Source of the DNA: an uncultured delta proteobacterium | Lineage (GTDB): Bacteria; Desulfobacterota; BSN033; UBA1163 | Direction of reading: 5' to 3' | Assembly: GCA_963731045.1 (NCBI GenBank) | Contig: CAVSVC010000018.1 | Span: 26,496-90,495 of the forward strand | Length of the DNA stretch: 64,000 nt | In this document: piece after piece, positions 8,989 through 55,329 of the stretch | Numbering within the stretch: position 1 is the stretch's first letter | Layout of the letters: every line of letters starts with the position of its first letter | Made by a program: the position numbers and the translations under genes | The notes under the pieces: generated by a model | The model's database searches: none | What the model saw: only the letters and a program-made list of their open reading frames with translations | What the model was told of the DNA's origin: nothing

Positions 8989-10398
8989 CTAACAAGCAGG
9001 TAATTCGTCTCCCTCCGGATCGAGGTTAAAAACGTAGGGATCCCCTAATGGGCTAAGAAAAGTGAAGAGAATATTTCTTGCATTGGCACTATTTAAATTG
9101 AAGTTCCAGAAAGTTAGAACCGGAATCACTTGATTTGGGGTGATCGTTTGGCTACTGCCTCCAAGGTTAAAGTTGACAGAACCGCTTCCGCTGGTATAAG
9201 TCCCACTATATTTCTGAACCCAAGCTCCACCTACAAACATGTAAATGTCCGTGAGTCTCCTATTTGCGCCGTTTGCAATCCAGGAAGCCGAAAAGGCATT
9301 CATGGTTACACTGTTCGTCCCCACATATTTGATGTAGAACCGAGCCCTCCGGGCGATGGCAGGAGGCGTGGGAGGAGGAACCGGAGGATTTCTGCACGGG
9401 ACTGGAGACGCAGGGTCAAGGATCAGGACGTTCAAGAATTGGGTGAGATCGGCAACCCTGACAATTCTTCTTTGACTGGCGCCTGTGATCTCTCCTGTAG
9501 AGGTTAAGGTGTCTGCGATATTGTCGTAGCTGATGGTGAATCTCCCATTTCCAAGGCTTCGCTGATTGACCGGGGGGTTATTCAGTCCCACAAGAGTCGC
9601 AGTGGTTCTCCATCCTTGATTTGAACTATATCGGACCGCGTACTCCACACCGGATTGGGCAATGAAGAGGGCCTGGTTGGAGTAGATGGGAAAGATCACG
9701 GATTTCTGTTTTGAGGGAAGGAGATAGGTGAGGACATACCCCATCGTGACCATGAGGAGCATGGCTACGAGCAGGAAGAGAACGGATACGCCTCTTGAAT
9801 TACTGGAAATTGATATTTTCAAGGGCTGATCTCCTCCCTCCATTTTTGAAAATAAATTCTTGGTGCTGGCGTTGTCCGAAAGGTTCTTGGGGTACACTTT
9901 AGTCTGTAAGGTGACATTCTCACCCGTGCCCAGCGAAAGGGTCAGAACCAGTTTGATCTCATCTTCAAGGGTCCCCCGGGTCACCGTGAAGGCAGAGACA
10001 TTGCCGGCCAAGGAACTGACGACTGCCGGGGATGTTTTGACCTTTTCCAGGGTATTACCGGTTTGCCGAAATGTGATATTTTCATTGGCACTGTCCTGAA
10101 CCGTTGCATTCGTTCTTGTGAAGCTGATCAGACTCCCCGACCCTCCGGCTACCGGAGAGGTCAGACTCCTTGCGTCCCGTATGTCCCTGCACATCCTCTC
10201 AAGGGCCAGTTTGCCCTCGTCCAAAAGGGTCTTCTGATTGATCGACATAGCGTAGACCCTTACGCTGCTTGCCAGGAAGTGAAGCCCCACAGCCGAAACC
10301 ACGGAAAGAATCACGATGACGATGACCACCTCAATCAGGGTGAAGCCCTTTTGAGTTTTGAGTTTTGAGTTTTGAGTTTTGAATTTCTTGTTCTGCAA
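8989..10398 (-). CDS. Large bipartite prepilin-like protein (minor pilin/adhesin candidate)
   Basis: 469 aa. Class III signal ...KTQKG|FTLIEVVIVIVILSVV. A second internal hydrophobic segment SRGVSVLFLLVAMLLMVTMGYVL (PilX_N-like) is preceded by GGAGGGAGGAG and TTG. Cys-poor beta-rich C-terminus. Confidence 0.75.
   Translation of the reverse strand: MQNKKFKTQNSKLKTQKGFTLIEVVIVIVILSVVSAVGLHFLASSVRVYAMSINQKTLLDEGKLALERMCRDIRDARSLTSPVAGGSGSLISFTRTNATVQDSANENITFRQTGNTLEKVKTSPAVVSSLAGNVSAFTVTRGTLEDEIKLVLTLSLGTGENVTLQTKVYPKNLSDNASTKNLFSKMEGGDQPLKISISSNSRGVSVLFLLVAMLLMVTMGYVLTYLLPSKQKSVIFPIYSNQALFIAQSGVEYAVRYSSNQGWRTTATLVGLNNPPVNQRSLGNGRFTISYDNIADTLTSTGEITGASQRRIVRVADLTQFLNVLILDPASPVPCRNPPVPPPTPPAIARRARFYIKYVGTNSVTMNAFSASWIANGANRRLTDIYMFVGGAWVQKYSGTYTSGSGSVNFNLGGSSQTITPNQVIPVLTFWNFNLNSANARNILFTFLSPLGDPYVFNLDPEGDELPAC
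10351..10385. repeat. Heptanucleotide tandem repeat (TTGAGTT x4 plus TTGAATT) inside the pilin leader coding region
   Basis: Direct reading of 10351-10385. On the coding strand it gives ...KTQNSKLKTQ... between the ATG (10398) and the G|FTLIE cleavage site. Confidence 0.9.
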
Positions 10399-36964: not shown

Positions 36965-37225
36965 ATGGCAGACGATGAAATCAAGGTCTATTCCACCCCC
37001 ACCTGACCCTACTGCAAGATGGCGAAAGAGTTTCTTTCGCAAAAAGGGTATAAGTTTACGGAATATGATGTGACGAAGGACCGGACGGCCCTGGATGAGA
37101 TGGTGAAGATCTCTGGAGCCCGGAGCGTTCCGGTCATCAGTGGCTGCGGTGATGTGATGGTCGGTTTCGACCGGACGCGCCTGGAGCAGATGCTGAGTTG
37201 TATCAAGCAACGAACGGAAATCTAA
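36965..37225 (+). CDS. Glutaredoxin/NrdH-like selenoprotein (U-P-Y-C active site, TGA at 37004..37006 read as Sec)
   Basis: ATG at 36965 with AAGGAGAG 6 nt upstream. Translation MADDEIKVYSTPT-TGA-PYCKMAKEFLSQKGYKFTEYDV...SVPVISGCGDVMVGFD matches the Grx fold, and TGA stands exactly where the first Cys of CPYC belongs. The track ORF 37019..37225 is the part after the TGA. Confidence 0.75.
37022..37040 (+). promoter_or_regulatory. SECIS-like hairpin GCGAAAGA-GUU-UCUUUCGC
   Basis: Perfect 8-bp stem starting 15 nt after the in-frame TGA. Confidence 0.6.
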
Positions 37226-37226
37226 C

Positions 37227-37312
37227 GTTACTGGTGATGGTGATAGTGATAGTAATAGTAATAGGGTTCGGCTCTTAACTATCACTATCACCGATCACTA
37301 TCACGTATCATT
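37227..37312. repeat. Inverted pair of hexanucleotide tandem arrays (GGTGAT GGTGAT AGTGAT AGTAAT AGTAAT / ATCACT-type)
   Basis: Left array 37233-37262, loop about 37263-37277, right arm 37278-37312. It sits between the convergent grx-like gene and uvrA. The uvrA C-terminus MIRDSDR* is encoded by the right arm. Confidence 0.8.
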
Positions 37313-40059
37313 CCTAAGCGTTTTCTTAGAAACTGGCCCGTGTAGGACTGTTTTGAGGCCATGATCTTTTCAATGGCCCCTTCAGCGACAATCCGTCCTC
37401 CTCCGTCGCCTCCCTCCGGACCCAGGTCGATGATGTAGTCCGCCCGCCGGATGAGATCCAGGTTGTGCTCGATGACCACGAGGGAGTGCCCCCGGGAGAT
37501 GAGTTTTTCAAAGGTATCGAAGAGAACATCGACATCGGCCATGTGGAGGCCGGTGGTGGGTTCGTCGAAGATGAAGAGGTTTCTTCCCCTGCTGGTTTGA
37601 CCGATATGAAGGGCCAGTTTGAGGCGTTGCGCCTCACCGCCGCTCAGCGTGTTGGTAGACTGGCCCAGCATCATGTATCCCAGTCCCACCTCTTTCAGGA
37701 CCCGAAGCTTGGAGACGATCCGGTCATGCCCTCCAAAGAAGGAGAGGGCTTCGTCCACTGTCAGATCCAGGATCTCGGAGATGTTCTTCTCATGATAGGT
37801 GACCCCGAGCACCTCGGGTTTGAATCTTCTCCCTTCACAGGCCTCGCAGGTGACAATCACATCTTCCAGAAATTGCATATCCAGGACCTGGAGCCCTGCC
37901 CCCTGGCAGACTTCGCAGCGCCCTCCTTCGGTATTGAAAGAGAAGTGTCTGGGTTTCAGCCCGTTTCGCTTCGCTTCCCTTGTCTGGGCAAAGAGGTCCC
38001 GGATGTCAGAGAAGGCCTTGACATACGTAGCCGGGTTGGACCGGAGGCTTTTGCCGATGGGGGATTGATCAACAAGGATGAGATCATCCACCTGTTCCAG
38101 CCCCTGGATCGCGTCACAAGCCTCTCCCTGACAGTTTTCTTCTCCGTTGCCTTTCGCACCTCCGAATAGGATACTGTGAACCAGCGTGGTCTTTCCGGCC
38201 CCGGAGACCCCTGTGACACAGACCAGCATCCCCAGAGGAAGACGGACGTCGATTTTCTTCAAATTGTGTTTACGGGCGTTGCGAATGGTGATCCACCCCC
38301 GGGGCTTCCGGGTAGTTCTTTTTTGAAACGGGCCGTTCCCGTTTTTCAGGCAGCGGGCTGTCATGGAATCCCCATCTTTCAGAAGGGATTCCATGTCTCC
38401 CTGAAAGACGATCCGGCCGCCGTCTCTTCCCGCACCGGGACCCAGATCAATGATCTCATCGGCAGCCCTGATCATGTCCGGGTCGTGTTCCACCACCACA
38501 ACGGTGTTGCCTCCTTTTCGTAAATGCTGGAGGGCTTTGAGGAGGCGGTCGGTGTCCCTGGCATGAAGGCCGATACTGGGCTCATCAAGCACATACAGGG
38601 TTTCAGTGAGGGCCGATCCCAGCGCCCTCGCGAGGGTGATCCTCTGATATTCGCCGCTGGAGAGTGTTCGCGTTTGACGGGAAAGAGTGAGATATCCGAG
38701 ACCCACGTCGACCATGAAGGTGAGTCGCCCGGTGATTTCCTTGAGGAGTCTCTCCGAAAGAGTCTTCTGATAATCCCGGAGAGGCAGATGATGGAAAAGC
38801 CCCTGCAGCTCGGAGATGGACATTTCAGAGAGTTCAGCGATGTGCTTTCCCCCCACCTGAACCTGGAGGGCTTCAGGCCGAAGGCGGGTATTCCTGCATG
38901 AAGGGCAGGTGGTATAAGCCCGATACTTGCTGAGGAAGACGCGGTAGTGAACCTTATATTTCTTTCCTTCCATCCAGTCAAAGAAGCCTTTGAGCCCGAT
39001 GAATTCCCCCTTTCCGTCAATGAGGATCTGTTTCTGATCCTGCCGGAGGTCTGCGAAGGGCTTCTCCACGGGAATCCGGTATTTCCGGCAGGCTTCCCAG
39101 AGATAGTTATAGAGGTCTTCGTAGGCGGGCGTATTCCACGGGGCGAAGGGTCTTTCATTCAGCTTCTTTCCCGGATTCGGGATGACTTTCTGCCAGTCGA
39201 TTTCGATTATCCTTCCAAAGCCCTGACAGGTTGGGCAGGCGCCGATGGGGCTGTTGAAGGAAAAGAGGAGGGGCTCAGGCTGGGAATAACTCGTTCCACA
39301 CTGATTGCATGAGAAGCTCCGGGTAAAGGGAAGCCTTTCTCCGTCCTCTCCGACCACTTCCACCTTGCCGTTTCCTATTTGGAAGGCGGCCTGAATCGCT
39401 TCAGCCACCCTGGGCCTGTTTTCCTCATCGGGGATGAAGCGGTCGATGAGGAGAGAGAGGGCCGTCTGACTCCGAAGATCCGGAAGGGGAACGCCGGCCA
39501 GGTCAAGGATCTCGCCCGATTTCCAGATCCTGTAATAACCGTTCTTGATCAAGTCCTTGATCTTGGATTCCATCTCTTCGCCCTGTTGCAGGGAAAAGGG
39601 GGAGAGGATGATGGTTTTCCGGTTTCGGAATCGTGCCAGGACCTGCTCGGAAACACTTTCCACCGTATCCCCGGAGACTTTCACATGACACCTGTGACAG
39701 AAGACCTCTCCGACTTTGGCAAAAAAGAGCCTGAGGTAGTCATAGATCTCCGAAGCCGTTCCAACGGTGGAACGGGCGTTCTTCACCGTATTTCGCTGCT
39801 CAATGGCGATGGCCGGCGGGATGCCGTGAATGGTTTCAACATCAGGGCGGTCCATCTTTTCGAGGAATTGGCGTGCATAGGTGGAGAGGGATTCGATGTA
39901 GCGCCTCTGTCCTTCGGCGAAAAGGGTGTCAAAGGCCAGGGTCGATTTGCCGGATCCCGAGACGCCGGTAATGACGGTCATTTTCCCTCTCGGGATCTTA
40001 CAGCTGATGTTCTTGAGGTTATGGGATTTTGCCCCAATGATTTCAATGAACTTTTCCAT
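37288..40059 (-). CDS. uvrA: Excinuclease ABC subunit A (UvrA family)
   Basis: Two ABC ATPase modules (GVSGSGKST, GVSGAGKTT, LSGGE signatures). Start chosen at MEKFIEIIGAKSHNLKNI (40059) by family N-terminus; the track ORF extends to 40143. Confidence 0.9.
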   Translation of the reverse strand: MEKFIEIIGAKSHNLKNISCKIPRGKMTVITGVSGSGKSTLAFDTLFAEGQRRYIESLSTYARQFLEKMDRPDVETIHGIPPAIAIEQRNTVKNARSTVGTASEIYDYLRLFFAKVGEVFCHRCHVKVSGDTVESVSEQVLARFRNRKTIILSPFSLQQGEEMESKIKDLIKNGYYRIWKSGEILDLAGVPLPDLRSQTALSLLIDRFIPDEENRPRVAEAIQAAFQIGNGKVEVVGEDGERLPFTRSFSCNQCGTSYSQPEPLLFSFNSPIGACPTCQGFGRIIEIDWQKVIPNPGKKLNERPFAPWNTPAYEDLYNYLWEACRKYRIPVEKPFADLRQDQKQILIDGKGEFIGLKGFFDWMEGKKYKVHYRVFLSKYRAYTTCPSCRNTRLRPEALQVQVGGKHIAELSEMSISELQGLFHHLPLRDYQKTLSERLLKEITGRLTFMVDVGLGYLTLSRQTRTLSSGEYQRITLARALGSALTETLYVLDEPSIGLHARDTDRLLKALQHLRKGGNTVVVVEHDPDMIRAADEIIDLGPGAGRDGGRIVFQGDMESLLKDGDSMTARCLKNGNGPFQKRTTRKPRGWITIRNARKHNLKKIDVRLPLGMLVCVTGVSGAGKTTLVHSILFGGAKGNGEENCQGEACDAIQGLEQVDDLILVDQSPIGKSLRSNPATYVKAFSDIRDLFAQTREAKRNGLKPRHFSFNTEGGRCEVCQGAGLQVLDMQFLEDVIVTCEACEGRRFKPEVLGVTYHEKNISEILDLTVDEALSFFGGHDRIVSKLRVLKEVGLGYMMLGQSTNTLSGGEAQRLKLALHIGQTSRGRNLFIFDEPTTGLHMADVDVLFDTFEKLISRGHSLVVIEHNLDLIRRADYIIDLGPEGGDGGGRIVAEGAIEKIMASKQSYTGQFLRKRLGMIRDSDR

Positions 40060-40236
40060 CGGATTTTTATTATAACACAGCAAACTTCTCTCACCATCAC
40101 GGGTGGTCGGCGATTTTTTGATTGGCAAACGGGGGGATTCCATAATATACTCTATCCGTTTAAGGGGTTTCTTGGGTTACTTGAGTTCGTTGGGTTAAGA
40201 GCGTAGACCAGGTAAAGTAAGTTCGAGGGAGGATCG

Positions 40237-42194: not shown

Positions 42195-44669
42195 TTACGC
42201 TGTTACGTTATTTCGGCAGGGCTGTCGAGCCTTTCCTTTGGCGTTTCTTCCCTGCTCCGTCAGCATCCGCTTTGTCTCGGTCACCTCCTGATCGGTCACA
42301 CTCTTGCGCAGGCGTTCCATCTTCTCCATGACTTCTTTGAAACGGAGTCCCTCGGCAGCGCTGATCCACTCGAGCTGAAGCCTCTCGGGCCGTAATCCGA
42401 GCTTCTCCATCTTTTTCCGCATCCGTTTGACGCGCCGCTCCGTCCAGTGGTTGGCGTTGATGTAGTGGCAGTCGCCGATGTGGCAGCCGGAAACGAGCAC
42501 CACCGGCGCGCCCTTTTCGAAAGCCCGCCAGACGAACTTCTCCGAACCCGGCCCGAGCACATGGTCCGGATCAGCCGGACGTTGGGCGGATACTGGCAGC
42601 CGGGAGACGCCGGCGAAGTCGGCGCCCGCATAGGAGCACCAGTTGCAGGCAAAGACGAGCAATTCGCTCCGCCGGGTCTTCCTCCAGGATCGCGTCGATC
42701 TGGGCCTCGATCTGCTCGTCGGTGAAGTGGTTCATGAGGATGGCGCCGAAGGGGCACTCGGCGGCGCAGGTGCCGCACCCGGCGCAGGCCGCGTCGGTCA
42801 CACGGGCCGGGGTCTTTGCCTTGGTATCCACGGTGATGGCCTTGATACGGGCAGACCTTGGCGCAGATGCCGCAGGACGTGCACTCTTCCGCAACGACTT
42901 CGGCGGTGATCGCCTCGACCCGCAGGTCGAGTCCGGATGCATCAGCCGGATGGCCCGGGCCGCCGCTGCCGAGGCCTGTGTGACGCTCTCCTTGATGTCC
43001 TTCGGCCCCTCGGCGCAGCCGGCAAAGAAGATGCCGCGCGTGGCGGAGTCCACCGGCTGGAGCTTGGGGTGGGCCTCCAGGAAGAATCCGTCCGAGGTCT
43101 TCTGAAGGGCCAGCATCTCCTGGACGATTTTCATGTCTTCGGGCGGCTCGACCCCGACGGCCAGGACCACCATCTCCGCCCGGTGGTTCTCGAGTTGATG
43201 TGGTCGCCGTGTTTTCGACCGTGAGGACGAGATCCTTGCTTTTCGGGTCTTCTTGAATCGATCCCGGCAGCCCCCGGATGTAGCGAACGCCCGGCCCCTT
43301 GCTCCGCCGGAAGAGGTCCTCGAACCCCTTGCCGAAGGCCCGGATGTCGATGTAGAAGACCTTGACCTCCATGTCCGGAGTAGTGCTCCTTGAGCATCAG
43401 CGTGCTCTTGACCGTGTTCATGCAGCAGATGTTCGAGCAGTAAGGCTCCCCGCGCCGCTGGGACCGCGAGCCGACGCACTGGATGAAGGCGATGGATTTG
43501 GGGGTCTTTCCGTCGGTCAGCCGCACGACCTCGCCCTGGGTCGGTCCGCCGGCATTGATCAGGCGCTCGAACTCCAGGAGCGGTGAGGACGTTCTCGAAG
43601 CGGGTGTAGCCGTACTCGTCCAGTTCCGTCGGATCATAGGGTTCCATGCCGGTGGCGACGACGATGGTTCCCACTTTGAAACTCAATTCCTCATCGCTCA
43701 TGTCGAAGTCGATGCACTTCTTTTGACACTTCTCGATGCACTTGCCGCAGACGACGGGATTGTGGCCCAGGCAGTCATCGATATCGATCACATAGGCGGA
43801 CGGGACGGCCTGCGGAAAAGGCGAGTAGATGGCTTTGCGGGAGCACAGTCCCATGTTGAATTCATCCGGAACCACCACCGGGCAGACCTGGGCGCAGTCG
43901 CCGCAGGCGGTGCACTCCTTCTCGTTCACGTAGCGGGCTTTCTTGAGGATCTGGACCTGGAAGTTGCCCACGTATCCCGTGACGGCCTTGACCTCGCTCA
44001 CGGGTCAGCAGCGTGATGTTGGGATGCCGACCGGCATCCGTCATCTTCGGACCGAGTATTCAGATGGAGCAGTCCATGGTGGGAAAGGTCTTGTCGAGCT
44101 GGGCCATGATGCCGCCGATGCTGGGGCTCTTTTCCACCAGGACCACCTCGTAGCCGGTGTCGGCCAGATCGAGCGCCGCCTGGATGCCCGCCACGCCGCC
44201 GCCGATCACGAGGGTGGCGGGTTCAACCGGAACCTCGACCTCTTCACGGACCCCCAGCCATCGGGCCCGGGCGACCGCCGAGCGCACCAGGTCCTTCGCC
44301 TTTTGTGTCGCTCCCTCTGGGTCGTGGGTGTGAACCCAGGAGCATTGTTCGCGGAGGTTGGCCATCTCCAGGAGATAGGGGTTCAACCCCGCCTCATGAA
44401 GGCATTTCCGGAAGGTCGGCTCGTGGAGCCGCGGCGAGCAGGACGCGACGACGATGCGGTTCAGACCGTTGTTCCCGGATGTCGTCCTTGATCTGGTTCT
44501 GCCCCGGCTCGGAGCAGAGGTAGGTGTCGTGGCGGGAGACGATCACGTCCCGGAGCCCCTTGCCGTATTCGGCCACGGCTGCGCAGTCAACGACGCCGGC
44601 GATATTCAACCCGCAATGACAGACATAGATGCCGATTCGACTTTCCTCTTTTTCTTCCTTTGCCTGCAT
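42195..44669 (-). pseudogene. hdrA: HdrA-like flavoprotein fused to MvhD domain, selenocysteine-containing, about 10 frame breaks as assembled
   Basis: Collinear pieces run in frames 2-1-0-2-1-0-1-0-2-1-2: 44394..44669, 44060..44386 plus 43862..44044 (same frame across a TGA), 42571..44001, 43131..43637, 42296..43372, 42195..42662. Motifs: [50 protein letters not shown], several CxxCxxCxxxCP, and an MvhD tail LLVFACNWCSYAGADFAG...GCHIGDCHY. Confidence 0.8.
44015..44046 (-). promoter_or_regulatory. SECIS-like hairpin GGAUGCC-GGUC-GGCAUCC downstream of the hdrA TGA
   Basis: The TGA is at 44062..44060. A 7-bp perfect stem (44039-44033 / 44028-44022) with a GGUC loop starts 20 nt after it. Confidence 0.6.
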
Positions 44670-44696
44670 GCTGTTTCCTCACCCTTCTTAGTGCTA

Positions 44697-44866
44697 AGTG
44701 ATCAGACATCAGTCATCAGTGATCAGTTATCAGTAAAACATGTAACGCTTCATCTTTTGCTGATTAATAATCCTGGGTTACTGGTCCTTGGTTATTGATG
44801 AATGGTCACTGATCACTGACAACTGGTATTTGGTCACTGGTTACTGATCACTGATTACTGATTACT
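44697..44866. repeat. Inverted pair of heptanucleotide tandem arrays (AGTGATC-type x6 / GRTYACT-type x13)
   Basis: Left array 44697-44738: AGTGATC AGACATC AGTCATC AGTGATC AGTTATC AGTAAAA. Right array 44776-44866: 13 in-phase heptads such as GGTCACT GATCACT GATTACT. The right array encodes the C-terminus RVISNQ* of the hdrD-like gene. Confidence 0.85.
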
Positions 44867-46067
44867 CGTGTGTTACCGTCTTTTTGACTGATCGCCTTGG
44901 GCTCCTTCGACCATTCGATGTGATCGGCCAGGACGCTGACCAGGTCCCGGATTTCCATTGAAAGGGAGCCTCCCTGGTAAGGGTCCCGCATGGCGCAAGT
45001 CAGGTGGATCATGCACTTGGGACAGGAGGTGACCAGAAGATCGGCCCGCGTGGCCTTGGCCTCCTGCAATCGTTCCACCTGAATGCGCTTCGAGTATGCG
45101 TCGCAGTTGATAAACCCGTTGTTGCCGCAGCAGACGGCGCTCCGGCCGGAGTTCTTCATATCCTTGAGGGCAAGCTCCGGGACCATCTGCATCAAGGCCC
45201 GAGGCGATTCGCAGGAGCCTTCCAGCCGACCCAGCCGGCAGGGGTCCTGGTAGGTTATCCGGCGTTTCATCGGCTTAAACGTGATCCCTCCCTTGTGGAT
45301 TTCCCGGCGCAGAAGGTCCAGGAGCAGCGTCACCTTGAGATCGATGCCCGGAATCACTCCGGGCATGAACTGACTCAGGACCTGATAGCACTCCGGACAG
45401 GATACGATGATCTCCTTTACTCCGGCTGCCTGGAATTCCTGATAATTCAACCGGCAGAGTGTCTCGAAATTCTCGCGGTCGCCTGTCCAGAGTAGATCGT
45501 GGCCGCAGCAGCGCTCCTCCTTCAATACCACCGGGACGATGTCCAGGAAGTTCAGGAGCCGGATGCTGTCCCGGACAATGGACAGGGTGTTGACCTCGAT
45601 GCCGGAAAAGAAGACGTCGAAATAGGGAGCGCATCCGGTAAAGAAAGCGACGGAGCCGGACTGGGCCACCCGAAGTTCAGTCCCCAGCCAGTCCAGCCGG
45701 TTCTGCTCCAGGTCGGGTGAAGTCATGATCCTCATCCAGGAGTGGAGGGCCCCGTCATGGGACCGGGAGCCCTTGAGGCCTTTCGTCTCTGCCAGCAGGG
45801 TTCGCATCTCCAGAATGAAGTCCCGGACCTCGACCCCGGAAGGGCAGCGCTCCTCACAGAGCCCGCAGGTCAGGCATTCCCAGACGGAGTTCTCGATGAA
45901 GGATTCGTTGTCCGGCTCCGCAATCAGCTTATGGGCCAGAAGCCGCGGAGAGTATTCCTTGCCGCTGAGCATGCGGGGGCACGAGGCCGAGCATTTGCCG
46001 CAATCGAGACACTGGAGAGGGATTTGTCCCGGATGATTTCCTTGATTCGGGGGTCGTCCAGCTTCAT
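44848..46067 (-). CDS. HdrD/GlpC/DsrK-like iron-sulfur protein (2x[4Fe-4S] + two CCG domains), one frame break
   Basis: CLDCGKCSASCP, CLTCGLCEERCP, and CCG motifs ERCCGHD and AVCCGNNG. The true start MKLDDPRIKEIIRDK (ATG at 46067, ATGA overlap with the mvhD stop) joins the main frame if the TTT run at 46023-46025 is one base longer. The track ORF 44848..46275 has a spurious N-terminus. Confidence 0.82.
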
Positions 46068-46489
46068 GGTGACGCCCCCTCTTGCCTCGGTTTCGCAGGG
46101 TTCGGACCCATGGTGAGCATCTGGTCGGAAAACTCCCACAGGGCGCTGACCAGTTCCTGCTTCTCATGGGCTCCGAAGCTTCGTTCCACGAGCCGCTTCT
46201 GGCCGATCCCGAGAAGATGAAGCAATCTGCGCACTTTTTCCACATTGGAGTGGCCCACTTCCGGGCCGGGACCATACCGGCAGTCCTCGTCTTTGCACTC
46301 CAGCAGGATCACCCCGTCGGCGCCGTATTCAAAGGCCCGAAGGATCAGGGCCTGGTTGATGCGGCCGATGCACATCACCCGCATGAAAGCGAAATGGGGC
46401 GGCATCTTCAGATGGGCCATGCCCGCGGCATTGTAGCAGGCAAAAGGGCTCCAGTTGCAGCAAATTCCGAGAAGATTGGTCCGTTCCAT
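46064..46489 (-). CDS. mvhD: MvhD-like (methyl-viologen-reducing hydrogenase delta subunit family) protein
   Basis: 141 aa. ICCNWSPFACYNAAG...MRVMCIGRINQALILRAFEYGADGVILLECKDEDCRY. Confidence 0.8.
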   Translation of the reverse strand: MERTNLLGICCNWSPFACYNAAGMAHLKMPPHFAFMRVMCIGRINQALILRAFEYGADGVILLECKDEDCRYGPGPEVGHSNVEKVRRLLHLLGIGQKRLVERSFGAHEKQELVSALWEFSDQMLTMGPNPAKPRQEGASP

Positions 46490-53100: not shown

Positions 53101-53931
53101 TTGACTGAATTCAAGGGCACCCTGATGCTGCCTTCGCCGCAAATACAGAGAAACCTGATTCAGGTCTGGGGCTTCGTCTTTAAGAATTGGATCATCGCCA
53201 AGAGGAATATCTTCACCCTCTTTGAGATCCTCTTCTGGCCCGTGGTAGGCTTCTTTTCCGTGGGACTCCTGACGAGTTTCCTTGAGCTGGACCCGAACAA
53301 AACCGGGTTTATTCTCGTCGGCATCATCTCGATGAGTGTGATTCAGGTCTGCCAGATCGATGTGGCCTACGTCCTTCTCTACGACCTCTGGTCCAAATCC
53401 CTCAAACACAGTTTCATCGCTCCGATCCAACCTTTTCAACTCCTATTCGGCTCCTGGCTGATCGGGGTGATCCGGTCCTTCTGCGTCTTCGTACTGCTCT
53501 CGGTCTGCAGCTCCCTGGTGTTCGGCCTCGACTTCCTGAAACCGGGAATCGGCCCTCTCTGCCTCTTTCTGCTGGGGCTTTTCCTGACGGCGGCCTGTGT
53601 CGGGATGAGCGTCTGTATTCTGGTTCTGCTGTTCGGGTATATGGCCGATATTGCAGCCTGGTCGTTAAGCAGCCTGATCTTTCTGGTCTGCGGAATTTAC
53701 TACCCCGTCTTCATCCTTCCTTTTCCCCTCCCCGAAATAGCCCAGGCCATCCCTTTGACCTATTTCCTGGCATACTTTCGTTCCTTCTACGGATTCGACG
53801 AAGGGCTTAAGAACGTCTTAGGTTGGGGGTTCGGTCTGGCGGGCATCTATATTGTCGCGGAGGCATACCTTTTTAGGGTCGTGCTCCACCGTGCAAGAAG
53901 GACCGGTTTGCTCATCAAACTCTCGGAGTGA
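53101..53931 (+). CDS. ABC-2 type transporter permease
   Basis: 276 aa with six predicted hydrophobic segments. N-terminal ...FKNWIIAKRNIFTLFEILFWPVVGF is typical of the ABC-2 family. The start may be the ATG at 53125. Confidence 0.8.
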   Translation: MTEFKGTLMLPSPQIQRNLIQVWGFVFKNWIIAKRNIFTLFEILFWPVVGFFSVGLLTSFLELDPNKTGFILVGIISMSVIQVCQIDVAYVLLYDLWSKSLKHSFIAPIQPFQLLFGSWLIGVIRSFCVFVLLSVCSSLVFGLDFLKPGIGPLCLFLLGLFLTAACVGMSVCILVLLFGYMADIAAWSLSSLIFLVCGIYYPVFILPFPLPEIAQAIPLTYFLAYFRSFYGFDEGLKNVLGWGFGLAGIYIVAEAYLFRVVLHRARRTGLLIKLSE

Positions 53932-53939
53932 TTAAAGGC

Positions 53940-54100
53940 CAGTGATCAGTAATCAGTGACCAGTGACCAGTAATCAGTAATCAGTGAAACAGGGTCCTTA
54001 AAGAGAGATCTGCAACCGCCGATCAGCAACCAGATACCATTAACCAGACCAACAGAAATAAATCGCTACTTGTTTGACTGATTACTGATTACTGGTTACT
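53940..54100. repeat. Inverted pair of heptanucleotide tandem arrays (AGTGATC-type x7 / GATTACT-type x4)
   Basis: 53940-53988: AGTGATC AGTAATC AGTGACC AGTGACC AGTAATC AGTAATC AGTGAAA. 54073-54100: TTTGACT GATTACT GATTACT GGTTACT. It sits between the convergent permease and glpB and abuts the glpB stop. Confidence 0.85.
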
Positions 54101-55329
54101 TATCCTTTCAGGGCATTTTTGGCCGCTGCATATCCCGTTGAGATTGAAATCCCTTCCCTGGAGCCTTCCTCGATGGAATGGTGGCCTGAGAGGATGGAGC
54201 CTGCAACCCAGACATTTTCGAAGATGGGATCCCCGTTTTCGTTGATGGGATGAAGCGATGAATCCACCTGGATGCCGGAGGAATGAATGGCATGGGAAGG
54301 GGCTGCGAAAAAGGAATTTTCGAACCAGTCTTTTTGTGATCCGGGTTGTTCTATCGGAAGGTGAAAGAGAGGTTCCGAAATCTTCTCCCGGTCCGCTGTC
54401 AGGCCTCCTCCGATGAATCGCCCCGTGGCAAGGATATATCGATCCGCCGAGTAAGAAGTGATGACTGGAGGATGGTGAACCCGAACCTCTGCGCACCTCT
54501 TTTCCTTGACGCCGACCTCTGAAACAGAGTATCCCAGAAGAACAGTGACTCCGTTTTCGATCAGCCATTCCTTGAAACGGTAGAATATTCTCATCCCCGG
54601 GATCGAAGGAGGCAAGGTTGGAATCTCAAAAACCTCGACTCCGATGATCTGTTCAAGGCCCTTTTTAACTTGAAAGGGATCTTTCACCCCCAACACGGCA
54701 GGGAAGCCCACGCGGGTTTCGCCCTTCAGTTGTTTCTTAATCTCCTCGGCGATCCTGTTCCTGAAGGATGCTCTCTCCATCCAGCGTGCAAGGGCCGTGG
54801 CAGTGATCTCCCGGTTGGAACATTCGGGGAGTGAGAGGATCCTCTTTCGACATTCGAAACGGTCTGCCATATACCCGGCGTAAAAATCCTTGAACCCTTT
54901 GAAGCCGACGAACAGGGCATCCCCTTTTTTCAAAGAAACACCGGCTGTCATCGTACTGGGAACATAACGGGTTGACCTGAATGTTCCCGCCCCGGTAGGG
55001 GTGAGACCGTTTCCGTTGCCGAACGAATGAAAGGAATAGGGAGGAGGGAAAAGGGAAAGGAAGGAGGAAAGGGCTTCCTGGATCCTGTCCGGTTCCAGCT
55101 TTGCGTAGGGGTGTCCGGGGTGATCCTTCACCCACCTGGAAAGACCCTCACCGATGCTCATCGTCTCCGGAAGTTGTCCAAGAACATCAATGGTGTTTGA
55201 AAAAAGGGAGAGGGTACCTATCCCCTTTCCAATGATGAGGACTTTCTTTCTCTCCTCTGCGGCTGTCTTGGCCGCCATGAGTCCGGAGAGTCCCATGCCG
55301 ATAATGATGAGGTCGTAATGCATCATCAC
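54100..55329 (-). CDS. glpB: Anaerobic glycerol-3-phosphate dehydrogenase subunit B
   Basis: 409 aa. YDLIIIGMGLSGLMAA dinucleotide fold. Family-typical length and position after glpA with overlapping start. Confidence 0.85.
   Translation of the reverse strand: MMMHYDLIIIGMGLSGLMAAKTAAEERKKVLIIGKGIGTLSLFSNTIDVLGQLPETMSIGEGLSRWVKDHPGHPYAKLEPDRIQEALSSFLSLFPPPYSFHSFGNGNGLTPTGAGTFRSTRYVPSTMTAGVSLKKGDALFVGFKGFKDFYAGYMADRFECRKRILSLPECSNREITATALARWMERASFRNRIAEEIKKQLKGETRVGFPAVLGVKDPFQVKKGLEQIIGVEVFEIPTLPPSIPGMRIFYRFKEWLIENGVTVLLGYSVSEVGVKEKRCAEVRVHHPPVITSYSADRYILATGRFIGGGLTADREKISEPLFHLPIEQPGSQKDWFENSFFAAPSHAIHSSGIQVDSSLHPINENGDPIFENVWVAGSILSGHHSIEEGSREGISISTGYAAAKNALKG

Follow-up and report, generated by a model that had tools for sequence, protein, structure and literature searches.

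The window analysed here, a stretch of 64,000 nucleotides (nt) from an uncultured delta proteobacterium, carries at 44697-44866 two arrays of seven-nucleotide units that face each other in inverted orientation between an hdrD-like and an hdrA-like gene. In the mRNA sense the hdrD-like gene comes first and runs into thirteen CAGTRAY heptads; degenerate heptads and a short turn lead on to six ACTGATN heptads, and a further 27 nt that include GGGTGAGGAA separate these from an ATG. The hdrD-like gene (44848..46275, minus strand, from the list of open reading frames, ORFs) encodes CCG (Pfam 7.6e-24) and 4Fe-4S dicluster Fer4_8 (1.4e-10) domains. Its product ends in ...KDGNTRVISNQ*, and the final six or so codons and the TGA stop (44848-44850), which falls within the third heptad, are made of array units. 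An earlier note on this DNA, made from the letters alone, had the right-hand array running into the 3' end of this gene, and it does, supplying the last codons and the stop.

The long array of thirteen heptads is the 5' arm in the mRNA sense (44776..44867, minus strand) and was recovered from the sequence itself, by Tandem Repeats Finder (TRF) and in a family scan. In a 7-nt register, 44776-44866 contains thirteen units in phase, of which eight match GRTYACT (the plus-strand form of CAGTRAY) exactly and five are degenerate. Four further degenerate heptads continue in phase down to about 44753, and in the inter-arm region that forms the turn (44739..44775, minus strand) the heptads are partly decayed. 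The 3' arm (44697..44738, minus strand) has six ACTGATN heptads of the RTYACTG type, seen by TRF, as inverted repeats and in folds. TRF reports period 7 with 5.4 copies and 83% matches at 44697-44734, and period 7 with 8.7 copies at 44806-44866. The arrangement of six AGTGATC-type heptads (44697-44738, plus-strand form) opposite thirteen GRTYACT heptads (44776-44866), described in the earlier note, was confirmed by TRF and by the sequence. The inverted-repeat arms are 45-47 nt long and 70-73% complementary, with shorter arms reaching 89%. RNAfold gives -64.4 kcal/mol for the plus strand and -58.9 kcal/mol for the minus strand (z -4.5 and -4.8), and none of 200 shuffles folded as well as the locus sequence. 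At the gathering threshold Rfam gave no match across the 64-kb window.

A Shine-Dalgarno-like GGGTGAGGAA and the downstream ATG (44667..44684, minus strand) lie outside the hairpin. The gap from the end of the 3' arm (44697) to the ATG (44669) is 27 nt, with about 12 nt to the ribosome-binding site. The hdrA-like gene that follows (42571..44669, minus strand; N-terminal ORF 44394..44669) is split over several frames and was traced by tblastn with the orthologue of one relative (L013). It aligns to that orthologue across at least five frame changes, indicating either a pseudogene or an indel-prone assembly, and the orthologue itself has an in-frame TGA (..MDCSI*ILGPK..) that is probably selenocysteine. 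The genes on either side are both read from the minus strand, which places the element inside an operon, from hdrD-like to hdrA-like, and not at the end of a transcription unit. The proposal that such inverted pairs stand at gene ends therefore holds in part: some arrays do abut gene ends, but this main example is intra-operonic, and of the genome's 143 CAGTRAY arrays only 28 are paired.

Extragenic palindromic repeats with arms made of tandem units form a class that is dispersed in the genome and found across the lineage, and the feature is one copy of it. The genome that contains the window (labelled G000) comprises 4.34 Mb in 65 contigs at 54% G+C and is estimated to be 82% complete. Genes were called with a crude self-trained ORF caller (3,924 genes, 77% coverage), so gene positions are approximate. 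Genome-wide there are 357 runs of period 7 and 138 of period 8, against 1 of period 5, 30 of period 9 and 5 of period 10. Three consecutive CAGTRAY units gave 55 matches in the genome and the reversed-pattern control none. This control and the excess at periods 7 and 8 exclude chance genome-wide.

CAGTRAY forms 143 arrays of at least three units, 138 of them outside called genes, and we also found arrays of CAGAARG (63), GCATAGV (88), CAGATTK (79) and the octamer GGAATRWT (103). Three heptad families have CAG+N4 in common. Five of the seven positions of the CAGTRAY unit are invariant over loci and genera, and the other two vary by transition only. The likening of the arrays to short tandemly repeated repetitive (STRR) heptanucleotide sequences stood up, and the arrays form one family and are not the outcome of local slippage. 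With CAGTRAY present at 143 loci here, and also in other genera and families, local replication slippage alone was rejected as an explanation. Nor, on our reading of the sequences, can adjacent CAGTRAY and CAGAARG arrays be taken in one locked (CAG N4)n phase, as the register shifts at conserved junctions. One junction motif, AACAAAGAG, recurs between CAGAARG and CAGTRAY blocks in composite modules.

The arrays are largely intergenic (324 of 361 arrays of period 7 or 8). Among the 244 array-bearing spacers 191 are co-directional (78%), 39 convergent and 14 divergent, and the divergent class is depleted against its 15% share of background spacers of at least 80 nt (p=7e-6). Arrays in co-directional spacers lie nearer the upstream stop than the downstream start (115 vs 76, p=0.006), and in 81 of the 191 they start no more than 15 nt from the stop. 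In paired elements the median distance from the stop to the 5' arm is 2-13 nt, and that from the end of the 3' arm to the next ORF about 20-24 nt. A paired element thus spans the distance from stop codon to ribosome-binding site. The genome-wide census that the earlier note had proposed therefore ties the arrays both to stop codons and to inverted pairing.

An inverted partner lies within 250 nt of 28 of the 143 CAGTRAY arrays, making about 14 pairs, and 85 of the 103 arrays of the octamer family are paired. Arms have 3-13 units, and loops measure 39-156 nt in CAGTRAY pairs and 8-249 nt in other families. The pairs have a fixed polarity, with CAGTRAY first and RTYACTG second. Counted from both arms of each pair, the partner is on the 3' side in 28:0 cases for CAGTRAY and in 180:2 when six families are pooled; a strict regular-expression recount for CAGTRAY gave 19 pairs with none reversed. 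Because an inverted pair reads alike from both strands, the polarity is a genuine property of the element and not of its orientation. Both arm orders are thermodynamically equivalent, so stability cannot account for it. Unpaired arrays favour the mRNA-sense strand, by 57 to 19 for CAGTRAY (p=1.5e-5) and 28 to 4 for CAGAARG. Long-range inverted pairs of arrays enclosing genes or other cargo were absent from the genome, orientations being mixed beyond 300 nt.

We recovered the hdrD-to-hdrA spacer from 28 genome loci and 36 metagenome loci; the related genomes are non-independent samples. This search of relatives found the same hairpin design, a CAGTRAY pair, at the same spacer in L045 (86% HdrD identity) and L070 (81%) as in G000, with different unit counts and unrelated loops. 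Other relatives carry a GCATAGS/SCTATGC pair there (L042, 89%; L043, 86%; L013 and L041, 78% HdrD identity), and one (L044, 85%) has twelve CAGAARG units. In more distant relatives the spacer is either short and empty or holds a plain GC-rich stem-loop (L016, L049, L071). The element starts at or just past the stop in all carriers, and is followed by ...GAGGAA...ATG, the same layout as at our locus. As L045 and L070 are independent assemblies, and independent contigs also carry arrays, an assembly artefact is argued against.

Two further spacers gave comparable series. Downstream of glpB, array pairs of at least six unit types occur in most of 29 genomes of the family. The rny-to-ymdB spacer holds a polar tandem-unit palindrome, 1-5 nt past the conserved ...AK* stop of the RNase Y gene, in at least 25 of 30 genomes, and these palindromes use at least eight units (CAGTRAY, TTCGGAGT, CAATKGY, GCTSAAAG, CCAAATA, CGAAATY and others; L130-L159). 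CAGTRAY is used there by seven genomes in five genera. Element-free rny-ymdB spacers are only 27-52 nt long. At this site in G000, G048 and G036, which represent three genera, the loops are homologous but largely diverged and the arms are clean CAGTRAY/RTYACTG.

The genome bin also contains homologous contig pairs at 90-97% nucleotide identity, totalling more than 150 kb (C24/C57, C21/C55, C16/C17, C3/C27, C10/C38/C9 and others; for example C24:12733-30127 vs C57:115685-133032). These represent either two related populations binned together or large duplications. We compared twenty array loci over the pairs. Whole-unit indels of 14, 20 and 25 nt were seen, so the variability in unit number that the earlier note had wanted checked is real between near-identical loci, as judged by comparing contigs. 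In one case the loop was wholly replaced between conserved octamer arms (C16:9878-10061 vs C17:17723-17966), the replacing loop in C17 being itself a palindromic repeat (gtcattgcgagcggagcgaagcaatc...gattgcttcg...cgcaatgac) nested within the octamer-arm element. A composite module was duplicated between homologous contigs, and a 105-nt block that opens with a CAGTRAY array directly past a stop was present in one contig and absent from the other (C21:22571 vs C55:51297). Whole elements were swapped for those of another family with their boundaries unchanged (C16:224 vs C17:6746; C55:63473 vs C21:36100). These indels, loop replacements and swaps indicate that the elements turn over much faster than the flanking genes.

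Outside this genome the distribution is patchy. Runs of at least three CAGTRAY units turned up in 7 of the 36 further genomes sampled from the taxonomic family and, in a first sample, in none of 25 from other families. Across the phylum 20 of 401 sampled genomes have them; one unrelated family does so in 4 of 12 genomes, with up to 48 matches. Among about 450 genomes scanned, array-rich examples (G000, G047, G048, G331, G358, G382 and G244) have array-free sisters. In the relatives, arrays again start just past stops and are mostly in the sense orientation, and pair polarity is identical. The nearest named relatives are metagenome-assembled genomes (MAGs) of Thermodesulfobacteriota and Desulfarculaceae, and an exact-protein look-up of both flanking genes found no conspecific assembly on record. 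The reversed pattern YARTGAC x3 is abundant, with up to 83 matches, in one genus of another family (f21; G162, G126, G254), which points to a different heptad family of its own there. In two array-rich relatives (L118 in G047, L126 in G048) the gene after an unpaired CAGTRAY array is a small one for a four-helix-bundle protein resembling those of 23S rRNA intervening sequences (IVS) and Avd.

The window holds two further examples of the design, both named in the earlier note and both recovered by repeat finding. The second CAGTRAY copy, at 53940-54100, has a 5' arm of seven units (53940..53988, plus strand) beginning 9 nt past the stop of a plus-strand gene (53101..53931), and a 3' arm of three to four ACTGRTT units (54073..54100, plus strand) ending at the stop of a convergent minus-strand glpB-like gene (54100..55329). 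A version with a 6-nt unit, at 37227..37312 and without an assigned strand, has six RGTRAT units facing five ATYACY units over about 13 nt, between convergent genes at 37019..37225 (plus) and 37288..40143 (minus). The window also has a (TTTTGAG)x5.4 array at 10349-10386, within the 5' end of a minus-strand gene (8989..10398), where the encoded repeat directly precedes a GFTLIE-type prepilin-like N-terminus; slippage in this coding leader would shift the frame. Elsewhere in the genome, an octamer module runs from TTGACA through (ATTAACTY)n to (AACCCAAT)n and is found close before gene starts (C19:11500-11590, C35:2890-2990, C35:45050-45130, C28:58760-58810 and three more). It usually comes after CAGTRAY or CAGAARG arrays, in the fixed order A-B-A-F, and resembles a portable promoter (TTGACA-N16-TATTAA).

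Several known systems resemble these elements. Hairpin-forming heptamer STRRs lie between the co-transcribed hupS and hupL genes of cyanobacteria, where a role in stability or translational coupling has been proposed (PMC2670836), and reporter deletions in Nostoc suggest that heptamer repeats have a regulatory influence (bioRxiv 10.1101/2022.06.06.494920). As with STRRs, the units here are tandem 7-mers with many dispersed intergenic copies, some of them arranged to give a transcript hairpin between co-transcribed genes, and the putative roles are alike. The host here is an anaerobic Thermodesulfobacteriota MAG and not a heterocystous cyanobacterium, the unit is CAGTRAY, and for the polarity, the stop-to-ribosome-site rule and the swapping of unit families we found no description for STRRs in the literature. 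The CAGTRAY unit, we take it, differs from those of STRR1-3.

The paired sites of classes 1-3 in Geobacter metallireducens GS-15, described as putative IHF/HU binding sites (Aklujkar et al. 2009, PMC2700814), are also close in design. They consist of three to five tandem units (GTTGCTYN, TCTCCGTS[Y], MTYCTGA) paired on opposite strands at variable distance, in several unit classes; the genome has tens of copies, and some of them separate operon genes such as proB and proA. Those units are unlike CAGTRAY/RTYACTG, CAGAARG, GCATAGV, CAGATTK or GGAATRWT. The list there has 8-24 pairs per class, whereas several hundred arrays occur here, and the sites were treated as DNA sites for IHF/HU, with no census of polarity, strand or distance from stops. 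The earlier note knew of no paired inverted arrays of this kind capping genes in anaerobic bacteria; given the hupS-hupL hairpins (PMC2670836) and the paired sites of an anaerobe, G. metallireducens (PMC2700814), that claim of novelty was too strong.

The TAACTGA direct repeats of marine Beggiatoaceae, Cyanobacteria and Bacteroidetes (MacGregor 2015, PMC4679880), read as ACTGATA, agree with ACTGRTY at 6 of 7 positions. They too are intergenic, abundant and phylogenetically patchy, which suggests horizontal spread, and a post-transcriptional role was proposed for them. Those repeats occur as 169 direct sets against 1 indirect, in 2-6 copies a few nt upstream of start codons, whereas here the sense strand reads the complement, CAGTRAY, the arrays begin past stops and a fifth are in inverted pairs.

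Repetitive extragenic palindromic sequences (REPs), bacterial interspersed mosaic elements (BIMEs) and REP doublets forming hairpins (REPINs), known from Enterobacteria and Pseudomonas, share with our elements an imperfect extragenic palindrome in hundreds of copies, mostly in co-directional or convergent spacers and often no more than 15 nt from a stop. Fixed polarity of the halves and a copy number that varies between strains at a given locus are further points in common with REPs and REPINs. When an E. coli REP lies within 15 nt of a stop codon, ribosomes stall and translation is reduced (as summarised in PMC12306157). REP arms, however, are unique sequences of 20-40 nt and not tandem 7-nt arrays, and REPIN copies share their whole sequence including the spacer, whereas the loops here are not conserved between copies. 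The present analysis adds rules for the polarity and the position of the elements, a strand bias among unpaired arrays, three series of orthologous spacers and the turnover at strain level.

It seems most likely that the arms of the operon transcript at this locus pair into a long imperfect hairpin. The 5' arm starts in the last hdrD-like codons and the 3' arm stops short of the hdrA-like ribosome site, leaving that site free. A hairpin right after the stop may modulate the stability of the upstream cistron and the termination of its translation, and may also modulate the coupling between the hdrD-like and hdrA-like cistrons. Action at the RNA level and an effect on expression are suggested by the likeness to REP/BIME elements and to the hupS-hupL STRR hairpin. 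Over time, arrays gain and lose units and look-alikes built of other units take the place of whole elements, the hairpin at the site persisting. That the element is a REP- or STRR-like intercistronic RNA hairpin, tuning the upstream cistron and its coupling to the downstream one, has in our judgement about an even chance of being correct, its function being argued by analogy. The hairpin persists though the unit family changes, arms are kept while loops decay, and five unit positions are invariant, all of which favours constraint on both structure and unit. Stop-adjacent placement, exclusion from divergent regions and the sense bias of unpaired arrays point to action at the level of the transcript.

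Several observations weigh against this interpretation. As 80% of CAGTRAY arrays are unpaired, a hairpin cannot fully explain the CAGTRAY unit. Stop adjacency may reflect the sole window that tolerates insertion, from the stop to the next ribosome-binding site, and may partly be a by-product of tight operon spacing. Folding favours the sense strand in 37 of 61 operon pairs and the antisense in 24 (Wilcoxon p=0.016), a small difference; G:U pairs are equal across strands (230 vs 216), and at the hdrD locus it is the antisense strand that folds better (-64.4 vs -58.9 kcal/mol). As a sign of RNA-level selection this sense-strand advantage is weak. The census also depends on gene positions from the crude caller, in an assembly with frameshifts and mixed strains.

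The main rival is a selfish origin, which is not mutually exclusive with an RNA hairpin. The palindromes would be non-autonomous elements, like REPINs or miniature inverted-repeat transposable elements (MITEs), with array ends recognised by a trans-acting enzyme and any effect on the host incidental; their position between stop and ribosome site would be what selection against insertions elsewhere has left. Fixed polarity, swapping and patchy distribution across the families of the phylum are what a mobile element would give. Inverted arms of strict polarity (28:0 for CAGTRAY, 180:2 over six families) recall MITEs and their terminal inverted repeats, and the near-symmetric folding of the two strands, the very short spacers of element-free relatives and the way composite modules recur with their junctions (for example AACAAAGAG) conserved all fit. 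So do the presence or absence of the 105-nt block, the element swaps and the loop replacement between contigs at 90-97% identity. However, a masked all-versus-all BLAST of array loci found no internal sequence shared among copies beyond duplicated contigs and short junction motifs, no clear target-site duplication was seen in the one presence/absence case examined, and there are no gene-carrying long-range array pairs. REPINs are tied to REP-associated tyrosine transposases (RAYTs); the genome, at 82% completeness, has four matches to PF01797 (Y1_Tnp), none with arrays within about 1.5 kb, and a link to a RAYT or IS200-type transposase was rejected. Occupation of the rny-ymdB spacer by at least eight families in at least 25 of 30 genomes would need extreme targeting or selection, and the transcriptional strand bias of unpaired arrays (57:19) is also unfavourable. 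The elements are not demonstrably MITEs or REPINs, and we hold a selfish origin to be possible, if somewhat unlikely.

A protein could instead read the arrays. If they were reiterated sites for a single-stranded RNA reader with a 7-nt period, TRAP- or HutP-like, binding to CAGURAY would compete with the hairpin formed with the 3' arm and so switch the downstream cistron. This would suit the five invariant unit positions and the two that vary by transition only, the CAG+N4 common to three heptad families, the sense bias of unpaired CAGTRAY (57:19) and CAGAARG (28:4) arrays, and the fact that the potential binding arm is always transcribed first in pairs. It seems very unlikely to us, as each of at least eight unrelated unit families would require a reader, no candidate protein was identified, the CAG phase is lost across the junctions of adjacent arrays, and a DNA-level element explains the polarity equally well. 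Double-stranded DNA sites for a nucleoid-associated or global regulator of the IHF/HU type, as proposed for G. metallireducens, would account for the identical architecture there, three to five tandem 7-9-nt units paired on opposite strands at variable distance (PMC2700814), and with both strands folding almost equally nothing demands RNA. Depletion from divergent promoter regions, where regulators are expected, placement set by stops and ribosome sites and not by promoters, and the strand bias of unpaired arrays all make this highly improbable, and the Geobacter assignment is itself only a hypothesis. The earlier note had listed terminators among possible roles, and intrinsic (bidirectional) terminators or attenuators capping genes would explain hairpins directly past stop codons, those that separate convergent genes (37227, 53940; 39 of the 244 spacers with arrays) and the TTTTTTT that follows one relative's copy (L113). 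That role fared badly: intrinsic terminators need a U-tract, yet only 5 of 67 pairs have TTTT within 12 nt past the 3' arm, so that a T-run after the stem is essentially absent. No terminator-like or promoter-like consensus was found in 44300-45200, the stems are AT-rich and the loops run from 10 to 250 nt. Most elements are within operons, 78% of array spacers being co-directional and including those of the obligate partners hdrD-hdrA, glpB-glpC, rny-ymdB and kinase-regulator. Canonical intrinsic terminators were therefore rejected, and intrinsic termination or attenuation is scarcely credible here.

Cyanobacterial heptamer arrays have been on record for 35 years, and those of giant sulfur bacteria and Geobacter were noted more recently. 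To our knowledge neither a function nor a mechanism of origin has been established for short tandem heptamer arrays. The polarity, the placement, the conservation of arms and the replacement of unit families turn the question into testable alternatives, namely an RNA hairpin, a periodic RNA-binding protein or a mobile element. For annotation, it matters that arrays supply stop codons and C-terminal tails (such as RVISNQ*) and inflate the spacers within operons. We would also raise the speculative and, we think, unlikely idea that the palindromes are traces of an undescribed system with sequence specificity. Its protein, recombinase-like or able to read nucleic acid with a 7-nt period, would install, homogenise and exchange the cassettes precisely in the gap from a stop codon to the following ribosome-binding site, and the elements would then be a new class of mobile intercistronic regulator. 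If this were true, the CAGTRAY/ACTGATN unit shared with Beggiatoaceae, cyanobacteria and several families of Thermodesulfobacteriota would mark the horizontal spread of that system.

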